From the IMG/VR virus record IMGVR_UViG_2541047502_000022, positions 1 through 10,682 of that record: a DNA stretch of 10,682 nt; one strand, given 5' to 3'. The position numbers and the translations under genes are program-made. The notes beneath the pieces were generated by a model, which worked only from the letters and a program-made list of their open reading frames with translations, ran no database searches and was not told the DNA's origin. This DNA comes from a virus. Taxonomy: Duplodnaviria; Heunggongvirae; Uroviricota; Caudoviricetes. Shown one piece after another: positions 1,858 through 10,682 of this stretch. Within the stretch, counting starts at the first letter, position 1. Each line of letters begins with the position of its first letter.

Positions 1858-2046
1858 GTGTTAAGCACTGATCGGTTTATACGTGAAAAAGAATGCGAAA
1901 AACTAACCGGCCTTAGCCGTACGTGTCGCTACCGCCTGGAAAAGGCCGGACAATTCCCATCACGTCGTAAACTTGGCGGTCGTTCCGTTGGCTGGTCTTT
2001 ATCCGAGGTTCTGGCCTGGAAGGATAGCTGCAAGGCAGTTCATTAA
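1858..2046 (+). CDS. alpA: AlpA-family transcriptional regulator / excisionase-like protein
   Basis: 62-aa protein with GTG start preceded by AAGGGGG 7 nt upstream. Sequence (CEKLTGLSRTCRYRLEKAGQFPSRRKLGGRSVGWSLSEVLAW) fits the AlpA/MerR-like small HTH family. Sits immediately downstream of int, as in P4-like islands and PICIs. Confidence 0.85.
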   Translation: MLSTDRFIREKECEKLTGLSRTCRYRLEKAGQFPSRRKLGGRSVGWSLSEVLAWKDSCKAVH

Positions 2047-2192
2047 TCACGCTGGCGGCACACAGCCGCCACACATCAATCATCTGAACACAGAGCTATA
2101 ACCATGAAGATTGAATATACGCCAGAACGTGGGCGGGGATTCGTTCGCCCTGGTGAGACTGGAAAACCACAAAATTGGGGTTTTTCAGGCAT

Positions 2193-2226
2193 AAAAAAAG
2201 CGGCCCCGAAATGGAGCCGCCTTTCT
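2193..2226 (-). terminator. Intrinsic terminator for the minus-strand RHH operon
   Basis: On the minus strand, GCGGC (2220-2216), an 11-nt loop, GCCGC (2204-2200), then seven U (2199-2193). The stem can extend by G-U and A-U pairs. Confidence 0.45.
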
Positions 2227-2315
2227 GAACAGATAACCCGCTGCGCCTTATGTGTATATGATCCCAAACATAAGCACGGGGATGATAGCCGCTATCAGGC
2301 TGGTGGGCAATGCTA

Positions 2316-2504
2316 TCAGTCTGGTTCAGTTCGTTGCCATACCTGCAATGGGCGCGTTTCCCTGTACTCTTTAAGGAATTGCTCAAGGGCAAAAGCACAT
2401 GGCGCGAATCTTTCTGATTCATGCTCTATCTTTCTGCGCCGTCTTTTCCGTGCCGGTGATAATGTTTTGGTCAATTCTTTATCGGTCATTGTGTTGTCCT
2501 GCAT
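2316..2504 (-). CDS. Hypothetical small basic protein, second gene of the minus-strand RHH operon
   Basis: 62-aa ORF in the same frame and strand as the RHH gene, starting 43 nt after its stop and lying before the minus-strand terminator. Contains a basic patch RKRRRRK. Weak RBS; alternative start at the internal Met (2489). Confidence 0.25.
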   Translation of the reverse strand: MQDNTMTDKELTKTLSPARKRRRRKIEHESERFAPCAFALEQFLKEYRETRPLQVWQRTEPD

Positions 2505-2546
2505 AGCAATGCGCCGTAATACCTCACACCACGGCGCTGATAGTTT

Positions 2547-2720
2547 TTATCCTTTGGGTTCTATGCCGCGTTGCTGTAATTCTTTGCGGAGAACGCGTTT
2601 AATCCAAGTGGCTAAAGATGTGTCGCCATCGGCCTTAGCAGCTTCTTCTAGCTGCGCTCTGAAGTCTTCCGGTAATCGCATTTGGTATGGAGGCGAACGT
2701 TTTTCTAATGGTGTTGACAT
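2547..2720 (-). CDS. Ribbon-helix-helix (Arc/CopG-type) DNA-binding protein, candidate repressor of the island
   Basis: 57-aa ORF found by hand translation of the minus strand: MSTPLEKRSPPYQMRLPEDFRAQLEEAAKADGDTSLATWIKRVLRKELQQRGIEPKG. The MRLPEDFRAQLEEAAKADG...S..A.I motif is the hallmark beta-strand plus helix A of Arc-like RHH proteins. Divergent from the plus-strand operon, with palindromic sites over its own start. Confidence 0.7.
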   Translation of the reverse strand: MSTPLEKRSPPYQMRLPEDFRAQLEEAAKADGDTSLATWIKRVLRKELQQRGIEPKG

Positions 2721-2762
2721 GGTAATTACCCTTTATTGCTATACCTACATGGTAATTACCAT
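2717..2762. promoter_or_regulatory. Paired palindromic operator candidates (ACATGGTAATTACC x2, core GGTAATTACC)
   Basis: The 14-bp direct repeat occurs at 2717-2730 and 2747-2760, each with the perfect 10-bp palindrome GGTAATTACC; the second extends to a perfect 14-bp palindrome ATGGTAATTACCAT (2749-2762). Centres are 30 bp apart. The first overlaps the RHH start codon and RBS. Confidence 0.5.
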
Positions 2763-2787
2763 TGTACTTGCCATTACACAAAAATCA

Positions 2788-2821
2788 ACGCCCCGCAGTG
2801 CTGGGAACACATACGGGGCGT
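2788..2821. other. 8-bp perfect stem hairpin (ACGCCCCG / CGGGGCGT) with 18-nt loop in the divergent control region
   Basis: Arms at 2788-2795 and 2814-2821 are exact reverse complements. On the minus strand it is followed by TGATTTTTG, so it may insulate the RHH promoter from upstream minus-strand transcription. Confidence 0.35.
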
Positions 2822-2850
2822 CTAACCAACAACGTAAACTAGGAGCCGTT

Positions 2851-3048
2851 ATGGTTGCCGTAAATCATATACCACACCTTGTACACACACAAACGGCCTT
2901 TGTGTGGCGTTTTCTGGCACTGAGTGCCGGAGAATCTCAAATCATCCACGTAACCGCCTGGACGGAACGCGAAGCGCGTAACCGTTGCCCGTCCGGTTGT
3001 GTTGCTGTATTTGCCGCCCGTATTCGTCAGGAGGTGCGCCATGATTAA
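2851..3048 (+). CDS. Icd-like small protein (putative host cell division inhibitor family), first gene of the plus-strand operon
   Basis: 65 aa; ATG 2851 preceded by AGGAG (2841-2845). The motif FVWRFLAL...TEREAR...VFAARI matches my recollection of the Icd-like family common in P4-like islands; assignment is from memory and unverified. Its stop overlaps the next start. Confidence 0.5.
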   Translation: MVAVNHIPHLVHTQTAFVWRFLALSAGESQIIHVTAWTEREARNRCPSGCVAVFAARIRQEVRHD

Positions 3049-3253
3049 TCTGTCACTTACTGACCTTAACCGCATTCAGTTTCGTGAGAAATTCACAGGG
3101 CAGCTACTGGTCAATGTGGATAAAGGTCGCGTGGTGTGTAATTACCACTTACCAGATGAAGCAATTGTCGCCACAAGGGAATCATTACAGGAAATCACAA
3201 AACGTGCCGGAATGATTAACACGAATATTCAGGGGATGCTTTATGCACAATAA
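3041..3253 (+). CDS. Hypothetical protein (70 aa)
   Basis: ATG 3041 with a strong RBS AGGAGG (3029-3034). Overlaps the upstream gene stop and the downstream start (ATGCACAATAA). No recognisable motif. Confidence 0.6.
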   Translation: MINLSLTDLNRIQFREKFTGQLLVNVDKGRVVCNYHLPDEAIVATRESLQEITKRAGMINTNIQGMLYAQ

Positions 3254-3707
3254 AACCACACCGGACGCAGCCGCCGAAGCCATCAAAACGCTGATGCACG
3301 CGCTGATTGATATTTCTGTTATCGCGGACAGGGCACATAAGCACGCCACCAGCGAAACAGAATATGCCGGTGCTTTCGTTCCTCACTCACTGGCTGTCAT
3401 GCAATTTAGTGCTGATACGGCGCTGAATGAGGCCAAAGCTATCCTGATTGCTGATTGTGAAAATGGGGGGGTTATGCGTGATGATCGTTTTAATTCCCTG
3501 AAACAGGAATTTTCCGGCGTTCCTGATGATGCGGCTGATGCGCTTTCGTCAATGCCAGAACTTATTAGAGCGGCTTTTTTCTTACTTTCCACGAGAGAAT
3601 ATAAATCAACGGGGCTTGATGTACTGAATATCGCCGCCGATTATGCGGAATATGTGGCAGAGGCGCGTTATAGAAGAAAATTTCCTGAGGATGTAAGCCA
3701 TGCGTGA
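3243..3707 (+). CDS. Hypothetical protein (154 aa)
   Basis: ATG overlaps the previous stop (translational coupling). Acidic, helix-rich composition; no motif recognised. Confidence 0.65.
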   Translation: MHNKTTPDAAAEAIKTLMHALIDISVIADRAHKHATSETEYAGAFVPHSLAVMQFSADTALNEAKAILIADCENGGVMRDDRFNSLKQEFSGVPDDAADALSSMPELIRAAFFLLSTREYKSTGLDVLNIAADYAEYVAEARYRRKFPEDVSHA

Positions 3708-3933
3708 TATTTACCACCAAACAATAGACCGCGCATTTCTTGCACTTTCTCACAGTGAAAACATGATGGAAATATTGCGCATATGGCTTGAAACACTTGG
3801 CGACAATGAACGCGACAAACAAAAATCAAGAATTGCCACGGCATTAATAACGCTTCTTGAGCCTGTAATAATGGAACTGCAAGAAATAGATCTATTGCAC
3901 GACAGATATAAAGAACAGCACACCGGAGAATAA
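3700..3933 (+). CDS. Hypothetical protein (77 aa)
   Basis: ATG 3700 overlaps the previous stop (ATGCGTGA). No motif recognised. Confidence 0.6.
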   Translation: MRDIYHQTIDRAFLALSHSENMMEILRIWLETLGDNERDKQKSRIATALITLLEPVIMELQEIDLLHDRYKEQHTGE

Positions 3934-3938
3934 AAATA

Positions 3939-4238
3939 ATGAAACTTAAATATTCTGGCTTAACTGCCAGTGGCAACACTCACCCTAAATTTACGCGCGG
4001 TGATATTTACCGCGACCAGTACGGCGGCACGGTAATGATTAAGGGCGTGGAAGAACGGCGCGTAACCTACCGCCGTGAAGGTTACGAATATGATTGCGTG
4101 ATGCCTGTTTATCAGTTCCGGCGTGATTTTTCTCTGGTACAGACCGCGCCGCATAACGTGCCCACCAGCAACGCCAGGGCACGGGCAAACATCCAGAAGC
4201 TGAAAACCATGGTTAACGGATTCAGGGGCAAGAAATGA
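3939..4238 (+). CDS. Hypothetical protein (99 aa)
   Basis: RBS GGAGA 7 nt upstream; its stop overlaps the helicase start (ATGA). No confident motif. Confidence 0.6.
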   Translation: MKLKYSGLTASGNTHPKFTRGDIYRDQYGGTVMIKGVEERRVTYRREGYEYDCVMPVYQFRRDFSLVQTAPHNVPTSNARARANIQKLKTMVNGFRGKK

Positions 4239-5635
4239 AAAGCGCACCGAACTTAAAAAAACAGCCTTACGACAAGATGACCGAAGTCATTATTTTTGCG
4301 GGTAGTGATGCCTGGGCACATGCGAAACAGTGGCAGGAACAGGACGGGCGACTGGCTGGCGATAATGTGCCTCCCGTTGTGCTGGCTGATGATCAACTGG
4401 ATGAACTGGCAGAACTGAGAATCATCGACGAGGGGCGCTATTGTGTCCGGCTGTACAAGGCAGGCCACATCAGGCCATCAAATATTAATGCCATTGCGCA
4501 CAAGCTGGCGGCGGCGGGTGTAACTGATGCGAATTATTACCCCGAAGGGATGCACAGCCATATGCGGGAGAACTGGCGCGAATACCTGGAACGGGTGCGC
4601 GGGAAAGAGCCGGCGGAAGAAAAAAACCACCAGCGAAAAACCACGCTACCGATGAGCGTTGGATCTACCGGATACGACACGCAACTGGATTACGTGGTTA
4701 AGGGGATTATTCCGGCGGTATCGCTATGCAGCATATACGGGGCTAGCGGGTCCTATAAATCATTCCTTGCCGGATCGTGGGCGTGCCATGTTGCCACTGG
4801 TCGCCAGTGGGGAGGCCGCAGGGTTGCACATGGTGCGGTTCTCTATGTGGTTGGTGAAGGCGGTATAGGTGTTCCGCGTCGTGTAAAAGCCTGGGAGGTT
4901 GTGCACGATGAGCAGGTGAAAAATCTGTATCTGGTAAACCGCCCCATCTTTCCGGCTGCCCCGCTTGATGTTGATGAAATGGTTATCGCTGCCCGTCAGG
5001 TGGAGCGGGAAACGGGTAAACCTGTACGCATGATTATTCTGGATACGCTGGCGCGTTGCTTTGGTGGGAATGATGAAAATGATTCCCGTGATATGGGGGC
5101 GTTTATCCGTGGTTGTGACGAACTGAAACGACGCACAGGGGCCACGGTGCTGGTGGTTCACCATTCCGGCAAGGATGAGACGAAAGGCGCGCGCGGTTCC
5201 AGTGCATTTCGTGCTTCGCTGGATGCTGAATACCGGATACGCAGGGAGGACGCAGGAAGCGAAGCGCTGGTTATCTCATGCACCAAAATGAAGGACGCGG
5301 AGGAACTCAAAGAAGCCGCATATGACTTACGCGTGGTGGAGCTTTTTACCGACGCTGACGGTGAATTAATCACGTTGCTGGTGGTGGTGGATGATCCGCG
5401 CCCTCCTGTTGAACTGGAGCGCATCGAGGAGGCAGGGAACAAGACGGAAAACCATACCGCGCTATGGGGGTGCATCCGTTCACGCACACAGAACGGCGAC
5501 AAGTGCACGATCCCGCTGTTACGTGATGACATGAAAAAGCTGGGGTATGAAATGAAAAACTTCCGGCGCTGGCTGTACAAGCTGGAAAAAGATGGGGTTA
5601 TTCGTATCGATGGGGATGATGTAGCGCCGCTATAA
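4235..5635 (+). CDS. Replicative helicase-like ATPase (RepA / AAA_25 RecA-fold family), candidate island replication initiator
   Basis: 466 aa. P-loop YGASGSYKSFLAGSWACHVATG (Walker A), hydrophobic stretch plus Asp MIILDTLARCF (Walker B), and VVHHSGKD, typical of RepA-like hexameric helicases. The N-terminal ~140 aa are uncharacterised. An iteron cluster follows immediately. Confidence 0.8.
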   Translation: MKSAPNLKKQPYDKMTEVIIFAGSDAWAHAKQWQEQDGRLAGDNVPPVVLADDQLDELAELRIIDEGRYCVRLYKAGHIRPSNINAIAHKLAAAGVTDANYYPEGMHSHMRENWREYLERVRGKEPAEEKNHQRKTTLPMSVGSTGYDTQLDYVVKGIIPAVSLCSIYGASGSYKSFLAGSWACHVATGRQWGGRRVAHGAVLYVVGEGGIGVPRRVKAWEVVHDEQVKNLYLVNRPIFPAAPLDVDEMVIAARQVERETGKPVRMIILDTLARCFGGNDENDSRDMGAFIRGCDELKRRTGATVLVVHHSGKDETKGARGSSAFRASLDAEYRIRREDAGSEALVISCTKMKDAEELKEAAYDLRVVELFTDADGELITLLVVVDDPRPPVELERIEEAGNKTENHTALWGCIRSRTQNGDKCTIPLLRDDMKKLGYEMKNFRRWLYKLEKDGVIRIDGDDVAPL

Positions 5636-5826
5636 AAGTGAGGAGCAAAAGCGAGGGGGATAGAAAGAGGGCCAAAATTAGCCCGCTCTCCCTCACTTTT
5701 CGACCTGTATACATCCTCAAAAGTGAGGGGTAAAAAAATACTTATGAAACACACACATAGAAAAACCGAAAATCCCAACTGCGACGAAGTGAGACGCTTG
5801 AAAAAGTGAGGCGAAAAAGTGAGAGG
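5633..5826. repeat. Iteron cluster, candidate origin of replication
   Basis: Six copies of the core AAGTGAG: 5633-5642 (+), 5689-5699 (inverted, CCCTCACTTTT), 5718-5729 (+), 5787-5794 (+), 5801-5813 (+), 5814-5826 (+), flanking an A-rich segment. Placement directly after the helicase gene matches PICI ori architecture. Confidence 0.5.
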
Positions 5827-5835
5827 TTGCGAGAA

Positions 5836-7379: not shown

Positions 7380-7586
7380 ATGGCTGAAGAGAAAAAAAGC
7401 GGTGTTTCGGTGTACATAAGCCCCGAAATCGTGGAGGTGCTCAAGCAGCGCCACAAAAAAAACTATGAAGCTGGCGTTGCGGCTGGACTGGATCCGCTGA
7501 TGACGCCGGAGCCGTCGATAGGTTCACTTGTACGCTCTTATTTACTTGCGGCGCTTGGGATGCATAAAAATTATGGGGGTGAATAA
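7380..7586 (+). CDS. Hypothetical small protein (68 aa), possibly RHH-like, first gene of the capsid operon
   Basis: ATG 7380 with RBS AAGAGGA (7363-7369); ORF-track start 7347 lies inside the operator palindrome. GVSVYISPEIVEVLKQRHKK suggests a beta-strand followed by a helix. Its stop overlaps the capsid gene start (TAATG). Confidence 0.55.
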   Translation: MAEEKKSGVSVYISPEIVEVLKQRHKKNYEAGVAAGLDPLMTPEPSIGSLVRSYLLAALGMHKNYGGE

Positions 7587-8641
7587 TGGCAGGCAAAGCA
7601 ACGGCACTTAACACTAACCAGCTTTTCATGTACCTGAATCGCGGGGATATTGCGGATTTTAAATTCAGCCCTCTGTTTACCACGCTGTTTTTCCCGAACG
7701 TGGCGACATTCAGCACGCAAAACATCATGCTGGATACCCTGGACATTGAAGAAGTCACCATGTCGGCGTTTTGTTCGCCTATGGTGGGTAGCCAGGTTCA
7801 GCGCGATAAAGGGTACGAAACCAGCACAATCAAACCTGGCTACATGAAGCCAAAGCACGAAATCGATCCAACGAAAACCATCATGCGCATGGCTGGAGAA
7901 GATCCGGCACAGCTTAACGACCCTACCTATCGCCGTATGCGCCTGATTACTGGCAACATGCGCCGCCAGATAAACGCCATTAAGGCACGCGTGGAATGGC
8001 TGGCGGTGAATGCGGTAACGACCGGAAAAAACATCATTGAGGGCGAAGGCATAGAACGCTATGAAATCGACTGGAAAATACCGGAAAACTGCATCATAGA
8101 GCAGGCCAAGGGTAAAAAATGGTCCGAGCAGGATAAAGACATGCACGACCCAATCTATGACATCGAGCTTTATGCTGATCAGGCTGGTTGCCCCGCAAAC
8201 GTCATGATTATGGGCGCTGAGGTATGGCGCACATTACGCAGCTTTAAAAAATTCCGTGAGCTGTACGATCTTTCCCGTGGTTCAGAATCCGCCGCCGAAC
8301 TGGCCTGTAAAAACCTGGGCGAAGTGGTGAGCTTTAAAGGCTATCTTGGTGATCTGGCCCTTATCGTCTATTCCGGCAAATACACTGACAGCGATGGTAC
8401 CGAAAAATATTTCCTTGAGCCTGATTTGCTGGTCCTGGGTAACACCAACAATAAAGGGCTGGTGGCCTATGGTGCGATAATGGATCAGGAAGCGGTAAGA
8501 ACGGGCGCAACACAAAACATGTTTTACCCGAAAAACTGGATTGAGGACGGCGATCCGGCGATTGAGTACGTGCAGACACACAGTGCACCGCAGCCGGTAC
8601 CGGCAGATATTCGCAAATTTGTTACCGTCAAAATTGGTTAA
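7586..8641 (+). CDS. Major capsid protein, lambda gpE-like
   Basis: 351 aa. Shared with remembered lambda gpE (341 aa): PGYMKPKHE, YRRMRLI, SFKKFRELYDLSRGSESAAELACKNLGEVVSFKGYLGDLALIVYSGKY, VLGNTN, YPKNWIEDGDPA and the C-terminal VTVKI. RBS GGGGTG upstream. Confidence 0.9.
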   Translation: MAGKATALNTNQLFMYLNRGDIADFKFSPLFTTLFFPNVATFSTQNIMLDTLDIEEVTMSAFCSPMVGSQVQRDKGYETSTIKPGYMKPKHEIDPTKTIMRMAGEDPAQLNDPTYRRMRLITGNMRRQINAIKARVEWLAVNAVTTGKNIIEGEGIERYEIDWKIPENCIIEQAKGKKWSEQDKDMHDPIYDIELYADQAGCPANVMIMGAEVWRTLRSFKKFRELYDLSRGSESAAELACKNLGEVVSFKGYLGDLALIVYSGKYTDSDGTEKYFLEPDLLVLGNTNNKGLVAYGAIMDQEAVRTGATQNMFYPKNWIEDGDPAIEYVQTHSAPQPVPADIRKFVTVKIG

Positions 8642-8653
8642 CGGGGGGATTCT

Positions 8654-8989
8654 ATGGACACTCCATACATTGAGTTATTTGCAGGCAGTCAGCAGGTATC
8701 CACGACGTTGGTACATTTTGCCGCTGATGCTGGCGTTATTCAGGAATTTACCCCGCTGATGCTGGCAGACAATGGCGAGTTTAAGCCGTGGGATGGTCAG
8801 GAATCTGGCAAGGCTGTTTATCTGACCTCGTACCCTGTGGACACGTCAAAGCAGAAATCAGCACAGTGTTACAAGACGGGGATATTCAATATTGCCGCCG
8901 TTAACTGGCCTGAGAGCGTCGACACCGATGCGAAAAAATGCGCCGCCTTTGCGGGTTCCGGCGTATCCGTTCAGCCGCTGGCCCGATAA
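8654..8989 (+). CDS. Head decoration protein, lambda gpD-like
   Basis: 111 aa. Shared with remembered lambda gpD (110 aa): TPLMLA, WDG, YKTGIF, WPE, AAFAGSG. RBS GGGGGG upstream. Confidence 0.85.
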   Translation: MDTPYIELFAGSQQVSTTLVHFAADAGVIQEFTPLMLADNGEFKPWDGQESGKAVYLTSYPVDTSKQKSAQCYKTGIFNIAAVNWPESVDTDAKKCAAFAGSGVSVQPLAR

Positions 8990-9001
8990 GCAGGGGGAAC
9001 G

Positions 9002-9415
9002 ATGGCAACGAATGAAAGCATCATGACGCTACCGCTGGCGAGTAAATTTAAAGTCGAAGCGCGGGCAATGGCTGACAGAGGTTTATCAACCTATGAGGCC
9101 GTATATCAACTAAACAAACTGGAAGAGCAGGACAAGCCGTGCGCTGATGCGATTATGGCGCTTCATGAGCATAAAGACTATCAGCCGCTGTTGCGTGCAA
9201 TGGCAAACGTGCCTTGTATCGATGTTGGTACGGCTAAAAGCATCCTTAGCATGACCATAGAGCAGGAACGTCCGAAGGTTGCGCCGGAACTTACCGCAGC
9301 CTTTGAAAACTTTATGGACATGCACAGCCCGCAAGCCGTATCAGCTGGCATGGCATACGATGGCAGAAACCAGGGCGATGACGGCGACATCGATCGCATA
9401 CTGAAAACCATCTGA
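9002..9415 (+). CDS. Hypothetical protein (137 aa) between the decoration gene and cos
   Basis: RBS AGGGGGAA upstream, followed by a terminator. No motif recognised. Confidence 0.65.
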   Translation: MATNESIMTLPLASKFKVEARAMADRGLSTYEAVYQLNKLEEQDKPCADAIMALHEHKDYQPLLRAMANVPCIDVGTAKSILSMTIEQERPKVAPELTAAFENFMDMHSPQAVSAGMAYDGRNQGDDGDIDRILKTI

Positions 9416-9419
9416 GACA

Positions 9420-9443
9420 AGGCCGGAGAAATCCGGCTTTTTT
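9420..9443 (+). terminator. Rho-independent terminator, third copy of the GCCGGAGAAATCCGGC hairpin
   Basis: GGCCGGA, GAAA loop, TCCGGC, then six T. The 16-mer at 9422-9437 is identical to that at 6785-6800. Confidence 0.7.
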
Positions 9444-9620
9444 ACGGGTCCTTCCTGGAATTATGGCCCGTTACGGGGCGGCGACCTCGCGGATTTTCGC
9501 TATTTATGAGCCTTTTCAGGGTGGTGGTGGTGGTTTTGTTGTTTGATCTATCTTTATGAATGAAAAGGGAAAGATGCAAGCAATACACCAACCTGAAGCA
9601 GTAATTAAGTTGGTGTATTA
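9444..9620 (+). other. Lambda-type cos site (cosQ-like, cosN, divergent cosB)
   Basis: 9444-9500 reads ACGGGTCCTT...GTTACG GGGCGGCGACCT CGCGGATTTTCGCTATTTATGAG. The 12-mer at 9476-9487 is identical to the lambda cohesive end as I remember it, and both flanks are near-identical to the lambda right end and left end. Downstream (9500-9620) diverges from lambda cosB and carries a (GGT)4 run (9519-9533) and an 11-bp inverted repeat AATACACCAAC / GTTGGTGTATT (9584-9594 / 9609-9619) abutting the Nu1-like start. Confidence 0.75.
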
Positions 9621-10163
9621 ATGAAATCTCATCTGATGAACAAAAAAAACATGGCGAAAAGCTGCCGTGTAAGTGCGACAGCGTTCGACAAGTGGGGAGT
9701 AACTCCCGTTGAGCGTAAAGGCCGTGAGGCGTTTTATGATGTTGCCAGCGTGATAGAAAATAGGGTTAACAATGCAATTAGCCAGCTTATAAACGACAAA
9801 GGCGAGATTGACGATGATGAACTTTTACGAGTCAGGATCAGATTACTGACAGCACAGGCAGAGGCGCAGGAACTTAAAAACGATCGCGATCGCGGTGACG
9901 TGATTGATACTGAGTTTTGCCTGTACGCGCTTTCAAAGCTGGCGAGTCAGATTTCATCAATCATGGACAGCCTCCCGCTTACTATGCAAAGGAGCTTCCC
10001 ACAGATTACCCCCGCCATGCTGGACAGGCTTAAAAGGGAAGTGGTTAAAGCCTGTAATGCCAGTGCCAGAGTTGCCGACAACCTCCCACAGATACTGGCT
10101 GATTACTTGAAAGAAACAACCGGAAACGTACCGGAAAAGTTGCTACAGAAGAAAGGCGAGTAA
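9621..10163 (+). CDS. Terminase small subunit, lambda Nu1-like
   Basis: 180 aa. The C-terminal two-thirds align with remembered lambda Nu1 (LTAQAEAQELKNDRDRGDVIDTEFCLYALSKLASQISSIMDSLPLTMQRSFPQI...LKREVVKACN versus lambda RLTRAQADAQELKNARDSAEVVETAFCTFVLSRIAGEIASILDGLPLSVQRRFPEL...LKRDIIKAMN). The N-terminal DNA-binding region is divergent. Alternative start ATG 9636. No terminase large-subunit gene follows. Confidence 0.85.
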   Translation: MKSHLMNKKNMAKSCRVSATAFDKWGVTPVERKGREAFYDVASVIENRVNNAISQLINDKGEIDDDELLRVRIRLLTAQAEAQELKNDRDRGDVIDTEFCLYALSKLASQISSIMDSLPLTMQRSFPQITPAMLDRLKREVVKACNASARVADNLPQILADYLKETTGNVPEKLLQKKGE

Positions 10164-10272: not shown

Positions 10273-10682
10273 GTAAGCGTACAGCGAGGGCCGTATTGAC
10301 GGGGATGTGTTATTCAGCTGGCAGTGCTATGCGCCACGGAAGCAGTTCGCTGACCCGGTTGACCGGCCAGTCTGCTATGACGCCAAGCACATGGCGAAGG
10401 TAGCTTTCTGGATCCACGTCATTCAGTTTGCACGTCCCGATCAGGCTGTACAGTAGCGCTCCCCGCTCACCACCATGATCAGAGCCGAAGAACAGGAAGT
10501 TTTTACGACCCAGACTGACCGCCCGCAGGGCATTTTCAGCGATGTTGTTGTCGATTTCCACCCAGCCATCGTTCGCATAGTACGTCAGTGCCGGCCACTG
10601 GTTAAGTGCGTACGCGAACGCCTTCGCCAACTCTGAGTGTCGCGACAGGGTCTTCATCTTTTCACGCAACCAGCTTTCCAGG
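10273..10682 (-). mobile_element. IS66-family insertion sequence, partial (one end plus transposase 3' region), continues beyond the window
   Basis: GTAAGCG at 10273-10279 resembles IS66-family termini, and the adjacent minus-strand ORF encodes an IS66 TnpC C-terminus. The element runs off the window edge. Confidence 0.65.
10310..10682 (-). CDS. IS66-family transposase, C-terminal part (5' end lies outside the window)
   Basis: The translation [75 protein letters not shown] matches the conserved IS66 TnpC C-terminus. The reading frame stays open to the window edge upstream of the ORF-track Met at 10669. Confidence 0.8.

Follow-up and report, generated by a model that had tools for sequence, protein, structure and literature searches.

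The window, by which we mean the whole 10,682-nucleotide stretch of DNA under analysis, is a phage-inducible chromosomal island (PICI) of the EcCICFT073 type at the roxA/phoQ site of E. coli O157:H7, and the five small genes ahead of its helicase (here g1 to g5) are the conserved early operon of this well-studied type of satellite. Most of the locus is unremarkable: it is a mosaic version of a satellite operon already known. We consider it probable that the five genes serve as an early regulation and replication operon with a P4-like layout, with the working and the gene roles proposed below.

The region is 100% identical to O157:H7 chromosomes, where it lies between roxA and phoQ, and the RefSeq annotation of these genomes gives exactly the same five genes. 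In FRIK944 and TW14359 the island is about 10.7 kb long and carries no lysis or tail genes, its morphogenesis genes being limited to a capsid E-like gene, a decoration D-like gene and a Nu1-type TerS. Integrase, AlpA and AAA_25 RepA domains follow one another in the PICI order int – alpA – replication gene, with an adjoining origin, and both the roxA–phoQ site and the gene order are common to the window, to EcCICFT073, the prototype Gram-negative PICI, and to the capsid-forming PICI known as OI-51, CP-933C, Sp7 or EcCIEDL933. The gene order, the site shared with known PICIs and the synteny with EcCICFT073 and Sp7 uphold the view of a preliminary description that the element is a satellite. A phage collection gave no matches, either in a megablast search with the region or in tblastn searches with g2, g3 and g4.

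The early operon, the replicase and the adjoining repeats are laid out as follows.

2851 to 3048, plus strand: g1, an Icd-like protein of 65 aa (NCBIfam NF033153, 64.8 bits against a cut-off of 25)
3041 to 3253, plus strand: g2, 70 aa (PHROG 340)
3243 to 3707, plus strand: g3, 154 aa, with halves A (3243-3473) and B (3474-3707)
3700 to 3933, plus strand: g4, 77 aa, acidic (PHROG 2196)
3939 to 4238, plus strand: g5, RgdR (DUF4222), 99 aa, pI 10.2 (Pfam PF13973, 1.6e-24)
4235 to 5635, plus strand: a RepA-family (AAA_25) replicative helicase of 466 aa, coupled to g5 by ATGA
5636 to 5830, unstranded: six or seven AAAGTGAGG-like iterons right after repA, read directly from the sequence and forming a probable origin of replication

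The preliminary description had reported these five same-strand genes with an overlap at every junction, implying tight co-expression. The genes are present as described, each preceded by a Shine-Dalgarno-like sequence, and four of the five junctions do overlap: g1/g2 (ATGATTAA at 3041-3048), g2/g3 (ATGCACAATAA at 3243-3253), g3/g4 (ATGCGTGA at 3700-3707) and g5/helicase (ATGA at 4235-4238). The exception is g4/g5: five nucleotides (GGAGAATAAAAATAATG) separate the last position of g4, 3933, from the first of g5, 3939. Among six other E. coli islands compared, this junction has exactly the same letters in five, the divergent Sp7 included, and nearly the same in the sixth, L087. Overlapping junctions are ordinary in phage and satellite operons and represent no statistical anomaly; what gives the overlaps meaning is their conservation across islands, and the architecture is kept across seven E. 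coli island types with four different replicase families. Co-expression itself stands, in the form of a tightly packed early operon ahead of the replicase that is probably co-translated. All five ORFs are real and under purifying selection: compared with diverged copies in islands, each gives dN/dS values that lie mostly at 0.17-0.5. A promoter and terminator scan returned nothing above chance (6 promoter sites seen against 5.9 expected), and a promoter-like site inside g4 is not conserved across islands.

All five proteins match PHROG families, which carry no functional assignment except for two 'transcriptional repressor' families matched by g1. Pfam and NCBIfam scans returned families for g1 and g5 only, securing the Icd-like assignment that had been offered tentatively for the first gene; the accompanying statement that the other four belong to no recognisable family holds for g2 to g4 and fails for g5, which scores 85.7 bits against PF13973 (gathering cut-off 27). 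The g1 protein is 95% identical to ECs1577 of Sp7/OI-51. By analogy with P1 Icd and with the ECOR61 experiments considered below, g1 is likely to be a growth- or division-arrest component. The g5 protein is identical to the TW14359 copy (WP_000770178.1), shares 93% identity with C1493 and 81% with ECs1581, and carries the RGD motif of RgdR at residues 20-22, a motif specific to E. coli that reads PGD or PHD in other genera. Its predicted fold is an SH3/Tudor-like barrel followed by a C-terminal helix. The RgdR paper describes the cloning of the TW14359 (lineage LI/II) variant, its activation of type III secretion and its repression of motility, and gives the same two effects for RgdR (ECs1581), C1493 and the LII variant (PMC3378721).

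The middle three genes encode uncharacterised satellite-specific proteins. They have no Pfam, NCBIfam or PADLOC family matches and are essentially limited to Escherichia; tblastn searches of 80 islands from other genera with a related RepA found g2, g3 and g4 absent from all, and these islands therefore provided no deep alignments for the three proteins. The g2 protein is a truncated, one-repeat version of a 121-aa two-repeat protein. In g3, two genes of about 73 aa are fused; CFT073 and a Nissle derivative have them as two distinct genes with translational coupling. The frame across halves A and B of g3 is set by a poly-G tract at 3465-3471 that has 7 G in the window and 8 G in EcCICFT073. 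The AF2 model of g3 is all-helical and of low confidence (pLDDT 65), and retrieved only generic four-helix bundles from the PDB with Foldseek (E>0.2); an exhaustive HMMER search reached only 53 representative clusters, and its long matches came from low-complexity sequence or from neighbouring genes fused by frameshifts or in assembly. A sequence search of the PDB with g3 and g5 returned chance matches only (E about 1). The g4 protein is predicted, by inspection of its sequence, to be helical, and in E. coli islands its gene always lies directly upstream of DUF4222. Our best guess is that g2, g3 (A and B) and g4 are protein-binding adaptors or modulators of g1, g5, Rep, or helper or host targets.

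Comparison of gene content across islands, which the preliminary description had called for, places the operon among its relatives. EcCICFT073 and the window share the order int – alpA – divergent RHH – Icd-like – small genes – DUF4222 – replicase, continuing after the replicase with SSB – PerC – capsid E-like – decoration D-like. The early operon of EcCICFT073 reads Icd-like – 76 aa – 73 aa – 73 aa – 77 aa – C1493 – primase; g4 is 87% and g5 93% identical to their counterparts there, and the second 73-aa gene matches the C-terminal half of g3 at 90% identity. The two islands differ in the replicase (RepA helicase in the window, primase in EcCICFT073), in the 76-aa gene, in whose place the window has g2, in their RHH and Icd alleles (46% identity for Icd) and at the right end, where the Nu1-type TerS of the window replaces the CFT073 genes. 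In Sp7 the operon comprises ECs1577-ECs1582, RgdR being ECs1581, and the attachment site is that of the window. Its junctions follow the pattern of the window, with overlaps at four of five and a 5-nt gap at the remaining one; the g4/g5 junction is identical, and g4 and ECs1580 are distantly related (26-31%). The window has nothing corresponding to ECs1578 and ECs1579, Sp7 has nothing corresponding to g2 and g3, and Sp7 differs further in having a DUF927 primase and a full capsid and terminase module. The slot is mosaic between islands and consists of semi-conserved small core genes (g3 halves A and B, g4 and DUF4222); it is not a hotspot for large cargo.

The left operon of P4 (vis(orf88) – cI/Icd-like ORF137 – epsilon – orf151 – orf106 – alpha) resembles that of the window in having an AlpA/Vis-type regulator, an Icd-like ORF and three small overlapping genes followed by the replicase. 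The slot of the small genes is positionally equivalent to the epsilon/orf151/orf106 slot of P4, in line with the earlier suggestion that it corresponds to the helper-manipulation position of satellites. P4 differs in placing isrK and the C4/CI RNA immunity ahead of its Icd-like ORF, where the window has a divergent RHH gene and a different conserved hairpin. The window also bears a likeness to immI-type regions such as those of P1 (c4 RNA – icd – ant) and P22 (mnt – arc – sar RNA – ant), in that an Icd-like first cistron is coupled to downstream genes, a small RHH repressor adjoins it and an antisense RNA may cover the first ribosome-binding site, both repressor and RNA being putative in the window; unlike these regions, the window has no ant gene, and the C4 family was not detected with Rfam.

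The control region upstream of g1 contains the following features.

1858 to 2046, plus strand: alpA, an AlpA-family activator (Pfam Phage_AlpA, 5.4e-17)
2104 to 2850, plus strand: a long stop-free leader in the frame of g1 (ORF 2104-3048, 314 codons)
2316 to 2504, minus strand: an ORF of 62 aa located downstream of the RHH gene, with 96% identity to a hypothetical protein annotated in CFT073
2547 to 2720, minus strand: a ribbon-helix-helix (Arc/YlcI-YnfO-like) protein of 57 aa, assigned from weak HMM matches and position
2717 to 2763, unstranded: two ACATGGTAATTACC(C/A)TT copies, each with the palindrome GGTAATTACC, 30 bp apart, from sequence reading
2788 to 2828, minus strand: a conserved, covarying 10-bp hairpin (2788-2821) with an invariant TCTAACCA (2821-2828)

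Gram-negative PICIs have AlpA as their master regulator, and its role has been established in EcCICFT073 (PMC6092414). The leader runs antisense to both minus-strand genes, and PGAP labels part of it an 'Icd-like pseudogene'. Among 20 strong Icd-like matches (19 loci and the window, from about ten genera), the frame of g1 is open for 122-368 codons upstream in 15, and the remaining two frames are open mostly for 31 codons or fewer. The RHH gene, unannotated in RefSeq copies of the island, yields matches to Pfam Arc (0.038), NCBIfam YlcI_YnfO_N (0.0014) and a PHROG Arc-like repressor (1.5e-6), all below curated cut-offs; at this position CFT073, the Nissle derivative and three further E. coli islands carry an annotated YlcI/YnfO gene. 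Transcribed divergently from the operon, the RHH gene encodes a candidate island repressor. The two ACATGGTAATTACC(C/A)TT repeats, which span a -35-like hexamer (TTGACA) and the start codon of the RHH gene and are missing from islands with other RHH alleles, are putative operators.

The hairpin lies just upstream of the g1 Shine-Dalgarno sequence and shows compensatory changes at seven of its ten pairs; none of 500 shuffles equalled its score. Pairing is 97.5% when read on the minus strand (16 loci) as against 93.8% on the plus strand (17 loci). A U-tract follows it on the minus strand (2787-2778) and gives it the look of a terminator for an RNA antisense to the g1 ribosome-binding site. No plus-strand target with complementarity to TCTAACCA turned up in a search. 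Since an Rfam scan of the window at E<=1 was empty, with a P4 control positive at 74.9 bits, C4/CI or isrK RNA is absent from the window, including the C4/CI-type antisense RNA that precedes the Icd-like gene in P1 and P4; in Serratia and Pectobacterium relatives, RNA-type modules (isrK and C4) occupy this same slot as alternatives.

Taken together, we propose the following working of the operon. In the resting island, the RHH protein would hold the operon down from the two GGTAATTACC-containing sites, with a possible further contribution from an antisense RNA that would terminate over the g1 ribosome-binding site, at the conserved hairpin. A helper phage would then turn on AlpA, which would activate the genes downstream, as has been shown in the relatives EcCICFT073 (PMC6092414) and EcCIEDL933. 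Judging from the overlapping or 5-nt-spaced junctions, g1-g2-g3-g4-g5-repA would next be translated as one coupled train, in which g1 would likely arrest growth or division and RgdR, as a small basic SH3/Tudor-like protein, would reprogram host transcription, raising LEE type III secretion and lowering motility.

A rival reading, which is compatible with this proposal, is that the operon is chiefly a phage-triggered growth-arrest module serving abortive infection or superinfection exclusion, in which detection of an early phage protein leads the Icd-like protein to stop the cell together with the small proteins and the replicase. It draws on a preprint describing a 'prophage-encoded superinfection exclusion system' in ECOR61, where the phage accessory protein orf24 triggers growth arrest, suppressor transposon insertions fell in an Icd-like gene and the next two genes (186 and 192 nt, with 8-nt and 1-nt overlaps), reconstitution of the arrest needed all six linked genes, primase included, and removal of the Icd-like gene abolished it (Silas et al., bioRxiv 10.1101/2023.04.06.535777). 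These gene sizes and overlaps match ECs1577-1579 of Sp7, the first of which is the close relative of g1, and on that basis the ECOR61 locus appears to be of the same operon type as that of the window; in addition, over-expression of AlpA drives uncontrolled EcCICFT073 replication that harms growth (PMC6092414). However, satellite induction with runaway replication could have produced the arrest as a side effect and nothing more, transposon insertions near the start of an operon are polar, and EcCIEDL933 leaves its helper phages unblocked. The two struck small genes (61 and 63 aa, of the ECs1578 and ECs1579 families) are missing from the window, the ECOR61 replicase is a primase, and PADLOC 2.0 gave no matches at E<=1 for g1 to g5, RepA or the two minus-strand ORFs. 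The helper-manipulation or defence function suggested in the preliminary description gains partial support from ECOR61 and finds no match among the PADLOC models, and we regard growth arrest as the chief function as possible, on a tentative footing. Rather less likely, in our judgement, is that g4 and g5, and perhaps also halves A and B of g3, act as accessory factors of replication, for instance in remodelling the origin, loading the helicase or activating the origin through transcription, and do not manipulate host or helper. In all the E. coli islands examined, which between them have four replicase families, DUF4222 stands directly ahead of the replicase and is coupled to it by ATGA, and an unannotated DUF4222 ORF sits just upstream of replication gene O in the lambdoid phage vB_EcoS-733R5; RgdR binds DNA non-specifically (PMC3378721), and the iteron origin lies right behind repA. 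One factor serving four unrelated initiators would nevertheless be unusual, 78 of the 80 non-E. coli islands with a related RepA lack DUF4222 and all 80 lack g4, and the RgdR phenotypes are transcriptional and were observed in uninduced cells (PMC3378721).

That one or more of g2 to g4 derepress a helper prophage upon entry into a lysogen, as antirepressors in the manner of P4 epsilon, is distinctly improbable, despite the shared operon position, the small, acidic and fast-evolving nature of g3 and g4, and the frequency of antirepressor genes (BRO, AntA/B, Rha) in other Enterobacterales PICIs (PMC13612085). No antirepressor domain was found, and published induction of Gram-negative PICIs runs from helper to AlpA, not the reverse (PMC6092414). 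Remote-homology comparison, which had been proposed as a check, led us to reject homology of g3 and g5 to epsilon, orf151 and orf106: hhalign probabilities were 0.4% for g3 against orf151, 0.1% for g5 against orf106 and at most 12.5% for g3 against epsilon, which fell to 0.6% with a more diverse profile, whereupon a 24-residue resemblance between g3 and epsilon also vanished. Least credible of all, to the point where we give it hardly any weight, is that the small ORFs are exchangeable anti-phage or anti-defence cargo of a satellite hotspot. The content from the Icd-like gene to g4 does vary between islands, and the GC content of g2 and g4 (0.40-0.42) is below that of g1 and g5. But the genes are very small and match nothing in PADLOC, a semi-conserved set (A, B, g4 and DUF4222) recurs in most E. 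coli PICIs examined, and the genes are translationally chained to the replicase, all of which is untypical of cargo hotspots.

Building on the early-operon reading, one may speculate further that the train from the Icd-like gene through the small proteins and DUF4222 to the replicase is a dedicated host-takeover and phage-sensing module of Gram-negative satellites, a view composed of three parts that we think doubtful as a whole. The 'novel superinfection exclusion system' of ECOR61 may be a PICI early operon that includes RgdR. DUF4222/RgdR may bind RNA polymerase or antagonise H-NS, since its fold resembles the RNAP-binding Tudor domains of UvrD, PcrA and CarD, and since raised LEE expression, lowered motility and raised Congo-red binding mimic the loss of H-NS. 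Lastly, an undescribed immunity module made of the RHH repressor and a cis-antisense RNA ending at the covarying hairpin may gate the operon, and may stand in for the C4/CI RNA of P4-type elements.

In E. coli O157:H7, RgdR affects type III secretion, motility and the colonisation of ruminants, and it is here placed as the penultimate cistron of a coupled train leading from an Icd-like gene to the replicase, in an operon copy that is unchanged across hundreds of sequenced O157 genomes. This placement makes testable why satellites retain the small genes beside RgdR, whether virulence regulation is a possible side effect of host takeover, and how Gram-negative PICIs, which are said to be repressor-less, are silenced. 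The ECOR61 growth-arrest locus, apparently of the same operon type, adds a possible link to phage sensing.

Five consecutive small genes precede the replication helicase gene repA in the window, as the preliminary description had reported, and the same gene calls are made in the RefSeq annotation of O157:H7 genomes that are 100% identical across the region. We refer to these genes as g1 to g5.

Genes of the operon
2851-3048, plus strand: g1, 65 aa
3041-3253, plus strand: g2, 70 aa
3243-3707, plus strand: g3, 154 aa
3700-3933, plus strand: g4, 77 aa
3939-4238, plus strand: g5, 99 aa
4235-5635, plus strand: repA, AAA_25/RepA-family helicase, 466 aa, directly after g5

Shine-Dalgarno-like sequences are found at all five starts. 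The earlier claim that every junction overlaps start and stop holds for ATGATTAA, ATGCACAATAA, ATGCGTGA and ATGA, but not between g4 (stop at 3933) and g5 (start at 3939), which are separated by a 5-nt gap that termination-reinitiation can still span. The junction sequence, GGAGAATAAAAATAATG, recurs without a single change in five of the six further E. coli islands that were compared, one of them the otherwise divergent Sp7; in L087, the sixth, it is nearly identical. Because dN/dS against diverged copies was mostly 0.17-0.5 for each gene, all five are protein-coding and under moderate purifying selection.

In O157:H7 chromosomes the region is flanked by roxA (ycfD) and phoQ, a site also occupied by CP-933C/OI-51/Sp7 (EcCIEDL933) and by EcCICFT073. 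The window runs from integrase and AlpA through g1-g5 to RepA, SSB, a PerC-family protein, capsid, decoration protein, TerS and an IS66 fragment; its gene order equals that of EcCICFT073, the prototype Gram-negative phage-inducible chromosomal island (PICI; PMC6092414), and the island is a mosaic member of this known family. In this 'classical' PICI, 7586-10163 holds genes for a major capsid protein like lambda E, a decoration protein like D, a small terminase of the Nu1 type and a 137-aa product, and none for a portal, protease or large terminase. The right end of the window carries a C-terminal IS66-family transposase fragment (DDE_Tnp_IS66 and IS66_C; 10310-10669, minus strand); FRIK944 and TW14359 have at this point a 93-aa hypothetical gene followed by phoQ, and the island copy in the window is therefore IS-disrupted. 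Directly 3' of repA, 5636-5830 holds six or seven iterons resembling AAAGTGAGG, of which one is inverted; they extend into the start of the next ORF and are the probable origin of replication. Across 80 islands of other genera whose RepA is related (49-72% identity in the C-terminal part), conservation is limited to the AAA_25 part of the C-terminus, which begins at about residue 104-135. The N-terminal domain (residues 1-130, 4235-4630) appears specific to E. coli islands in this comparison and may serve in origin recognition.

Both ends of the five-gene series could be assigned to families. The tentative Icd-like assignment of g1 was borne out by the NCBIfam model (64.8 bits, cut-off 25) and by 95% identity to ECs1577 of Sp7. 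A terminator-like hairpin, CACACAAACGGCCTTTGTGTG followed by GCGTTTTCTG, occupies 2886-2915 on the plus strand within codons 12-22 of g1; its GGCGTTTTCT part is kept across genera, and it could be an attenuator or could owe its conservation merely to conserved W-R-F residues. The product of g5, previously taken for a motif-less unknown, matches Pfam DUF4222 (85.7 bits, cut-off 27) and shares 93% identity with CFT073 C1493 and 81% with ECs1581 (RgdR). It has RGD at residues 20-22, where other genera have PGD or PHD, the RGD itself not being conserved outside. In the work of Flockhart et al., both ECs1581 and C1493 were shown to raise LEE1 and type III secretion and to lower motility, and separately cloned variants of O157 lineages LI/II (TW14359) and LII are reported to have like effects (PMC3378721). 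As TW14359 carries the same island, with identical protein accessions for all five genes, g5 encodes a characterized protein. Such g5 variants control LEE and motility in cells that have not been induced; their DNA binding is non-specific, and their action does not depend on Ler, GrlA or QseC (PMC3378721). The AF2 model of g5 (pLDDT 78 overall, >90 in the core) predicts a five-stranded SH3/Tudor-like barrel with a basic C-terminal helix. Elevated LEE expression, reduced motility and increased Congo-red binding form the pattern expected from loss of H-NS function; we regard the match of the RgdR phenotypes to this pattern, and the likeness of the predicted fold to RNAP-binding Tudor domains, as leads and not as evidence. 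An unannotated DUF4222-core ORF also lies directly 5' of replication gene O in Escherichia phage vB_EcoS-733R5 (4001-4141, plus strand), where the record annotates a minus-strand hypothetical protein instead; a true phage, too, therefore has DUF4222 next to a replicase.

The middle genes yielded less to homology searches: no PDB sequence match was found among g1-g5, the search with g3 and g5 giving chance hits only (E about 1), and tblastn of g2-g4 against about 50,000 phage genomes returned none. Other islands (L087) encode a 121-aa protein with two repeats, of which g2 corresponds to the first; a word-indexed search recovered 29 clusters, almost all of them labelled Escherichia, and none of the full-length matches bore a Pfam domain. 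At the profile level g2 belongs to PHROG 340, a family also matched by a Citrobacter island protein of 66 aa that is encoded just ahead of DUF4222. The g4 protein (PHROG 2196) stands ahead of DUF4222 in all the E. coli islands examined and is distantly related to ECs1580 of Sp7 (26-31%). The third gene, g3, is a fusion of two genes, here called A and B, which in CFT073 and a Nissle derivative occupy the same place as separate 73-aa genes coupled by ATGCGTGA. Its frame is set by a poly-G tract at 3465-3471: the 7 G of the window give the fusion, 8 G (CFT073 and the Nissle derivative) give the two coupled genes, and 9 G (two other islands) shift the last part of A into the third frame. B retains its own ATG at 3474, straight after the G-run, which doubles as its Shine-Dalgarno-like sequence, and the tract could be a site of slippage or phase variation. 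Fused forms are common and diverged, with two clusters of 150-155 aa comprising 191 and 257 members, in a family for which a search of 1.84 billion proteins gave no more than 53 representative clusters. The g3 model (five helices) reached a pLDDT of 65, and the fold search was uninformative.

Something similar to the region is present in about 1,680 of 5,426 complete E. coli genomes, most of it in 346, and the exact sequence in hundreds of O157 genomes. Seven island types share a common order, namely int, alpA, minus-strand hypothetical and YlcI/YnfO-type ribbon-helix-helix (RHH) genes, the Icd-like gene, two to four small genes, the g4 family, DUF4222 and a replicase, the last drawn from four families (RepA helicase, 'DNA primase family', P4-type primase, DUF927). 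From the Icd-like gene to g4, the gene set is a mosaic.

Genes between the Icd-like gene and g4
CFT073, Nissle derivative: 76-aa gene, A, B
L085, L086 (E. coli comparison loci): A, B
L087: A, long g2, B
Window: short g2, A-B fusion
Sp7: ECs1578, ECs1579

In the 80 RepA islands of other genera, tblastn detected g2, g3 and g4 in none and DUF4222 in two, a profile search found a strong Icd-like match in 11, and the same place holds other small, often acidic proteins (PHROGs 6805 and 6610). Judged by this mosaic gene content and the replacement by other small proteins across genera, the slot is a semi-conserved early-gene region with fast turnover. The suggestion that it carries anti-phage cargo was not upheld: PADLOC models matched none of g1-g5, and the slot is no defence-cargo hotspot.

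Several candidate control elements lie upstream of g1.

Elements upstream of g1
2104-3048, plus strand: long open leader in the g1 frame, 314 codons, 249 of them upstream of the g1 ATG
2547-2720, minus strand: 57-aa ORF with an RHH sequence pattern, divergent from the operon
2717-2763: two ACATGGTAATTACC(C/A)TT repeats, 30 bp apart, putative operators
2788-2821: conserved hairpin between the operators and the g1 Shine-Dalgarno, then invariant TCTAACCA at 2821-2828

The 57-aa ORF, unannotated in RefSeq copies of the island, matches the Arc and YlcI/YnfO HMMs weakly, under curated cut-offs; its place is that of an annotated YlcI/YnfO gene in CFT073, the Nissle derivative and three other E. coli islands. 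Its start codon falls inside the first repeat, and the repeats lie over this codon and a perfect TTGACA (2714-2719). The motif is absent from islands with other RHH alleles, and Sp7 pairs a related RHH protein with a different near-palindrome. Such an arrangement would look like an immunity-type repressor/operator module.

The hairpin shows compensatory changes in 7 of its 10 pairs across 16-17 loci from about ten genera, a covariation reached in 0 of 500 shuffles, and matches no Rfam family. Pairing is 97.5% on the minus strand (16 loci) versus 93.8% on the plus strand (17 loci), wobble pairs are legal on the minus strand only, and a minus-strand U-tract follows at 2787-2778. No promoter for a leftward RNA was found, and we therefore only infer that the hairpin terminates an RNA antisense to the g1 ribosome-binding site. 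The open leader crosses two minus-strand genes in antisense (2104-2850), and PGAP labels part of it an 'Icd-like pseudogene'. Among 20 strong Icd-like matches from many genera (19 loci and the window), 15 have an in-frame open stretch of 122-368 codons upstream, the remaining two frames being open for mostly ≤31 codons. It is possible that the leader is translated, shielding the alpA-to-icd transcript from polarity; in P4, translation of a leader ORF governs termination.

The analogy to P4 stands for position in the operon but not for homology. The P4 left operon reads vis(orf88), 'cI' ORF137, epsilon, orf151, orf106 and alpha, with 8-nt overlaps joining the first four genes, and the C-terminus of ORF137 is, as is g1, Icd-like in sequence; its 'transcriptional repressor' label is probably the source of such PHROG names among g1 matches. 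Comparison of g3 and g5 with epsilon, orf151 and orf106 found no homology. P4 has isrK, c4 targets and the C4/CI RNA upstream of the Icd-like part (Rfam), and an Rfam scan of the window gave no isrK, C4 or other match. Serratia and Pectobacterium RepA-island relatives carry isrK and/or C4 at the equivalent slot (L044, 4637-4723; L054, 4530-4721; Rfam), where the window has the RHH gene and hairpin, and by this placement RNA-based and protein-based control modules appear interchangeable.

In relatives, helper phages induce alpA, whose product turns on downstream genes and is needed for induction and transfer, and uncontrolled replication damages the host (PMC6092414, for EcCICFT073). In strain ECOR61, expression of phage orf24 is reported to lead to growth arrest; suppressor insertions fell in an Icd-like gene and the two genes after it, arrest required all six linked genes, primase included, and deletion of the Icd-like gene removed the effect (bioRxiv 10.1101/2023.04.06.535777). 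These two genes measure 186 and 192 nt with overlaps of 8 and 1 nt, the values of ECs1577/1578/1579, and by gene sizes and overlaps the locus appears to be the same operon type as g1 to repA. We propose that AlpA and release of RHH repression would switch on the g1-to-repA train, which would be translated in a coupled manner; g1 would share in growth or division arrest, g5 would reprogram host transcription, and g2-g4 may act as small binding partners.

Neither the island family nor the Icd-like gene nor RgdR is new, and published PICI maps show the middle genes as 'hypothetical'. To these our analysis adds the inference that the ECOR61 'superinfection exclusion' locus is a PICI early operon with RgdR, the poly-G-controlled A/B fusion, a covarying hairpin resembling an antisense terminator, and a candidate module of RHH repressor and operators in a class of satellites said to have no known repressor.
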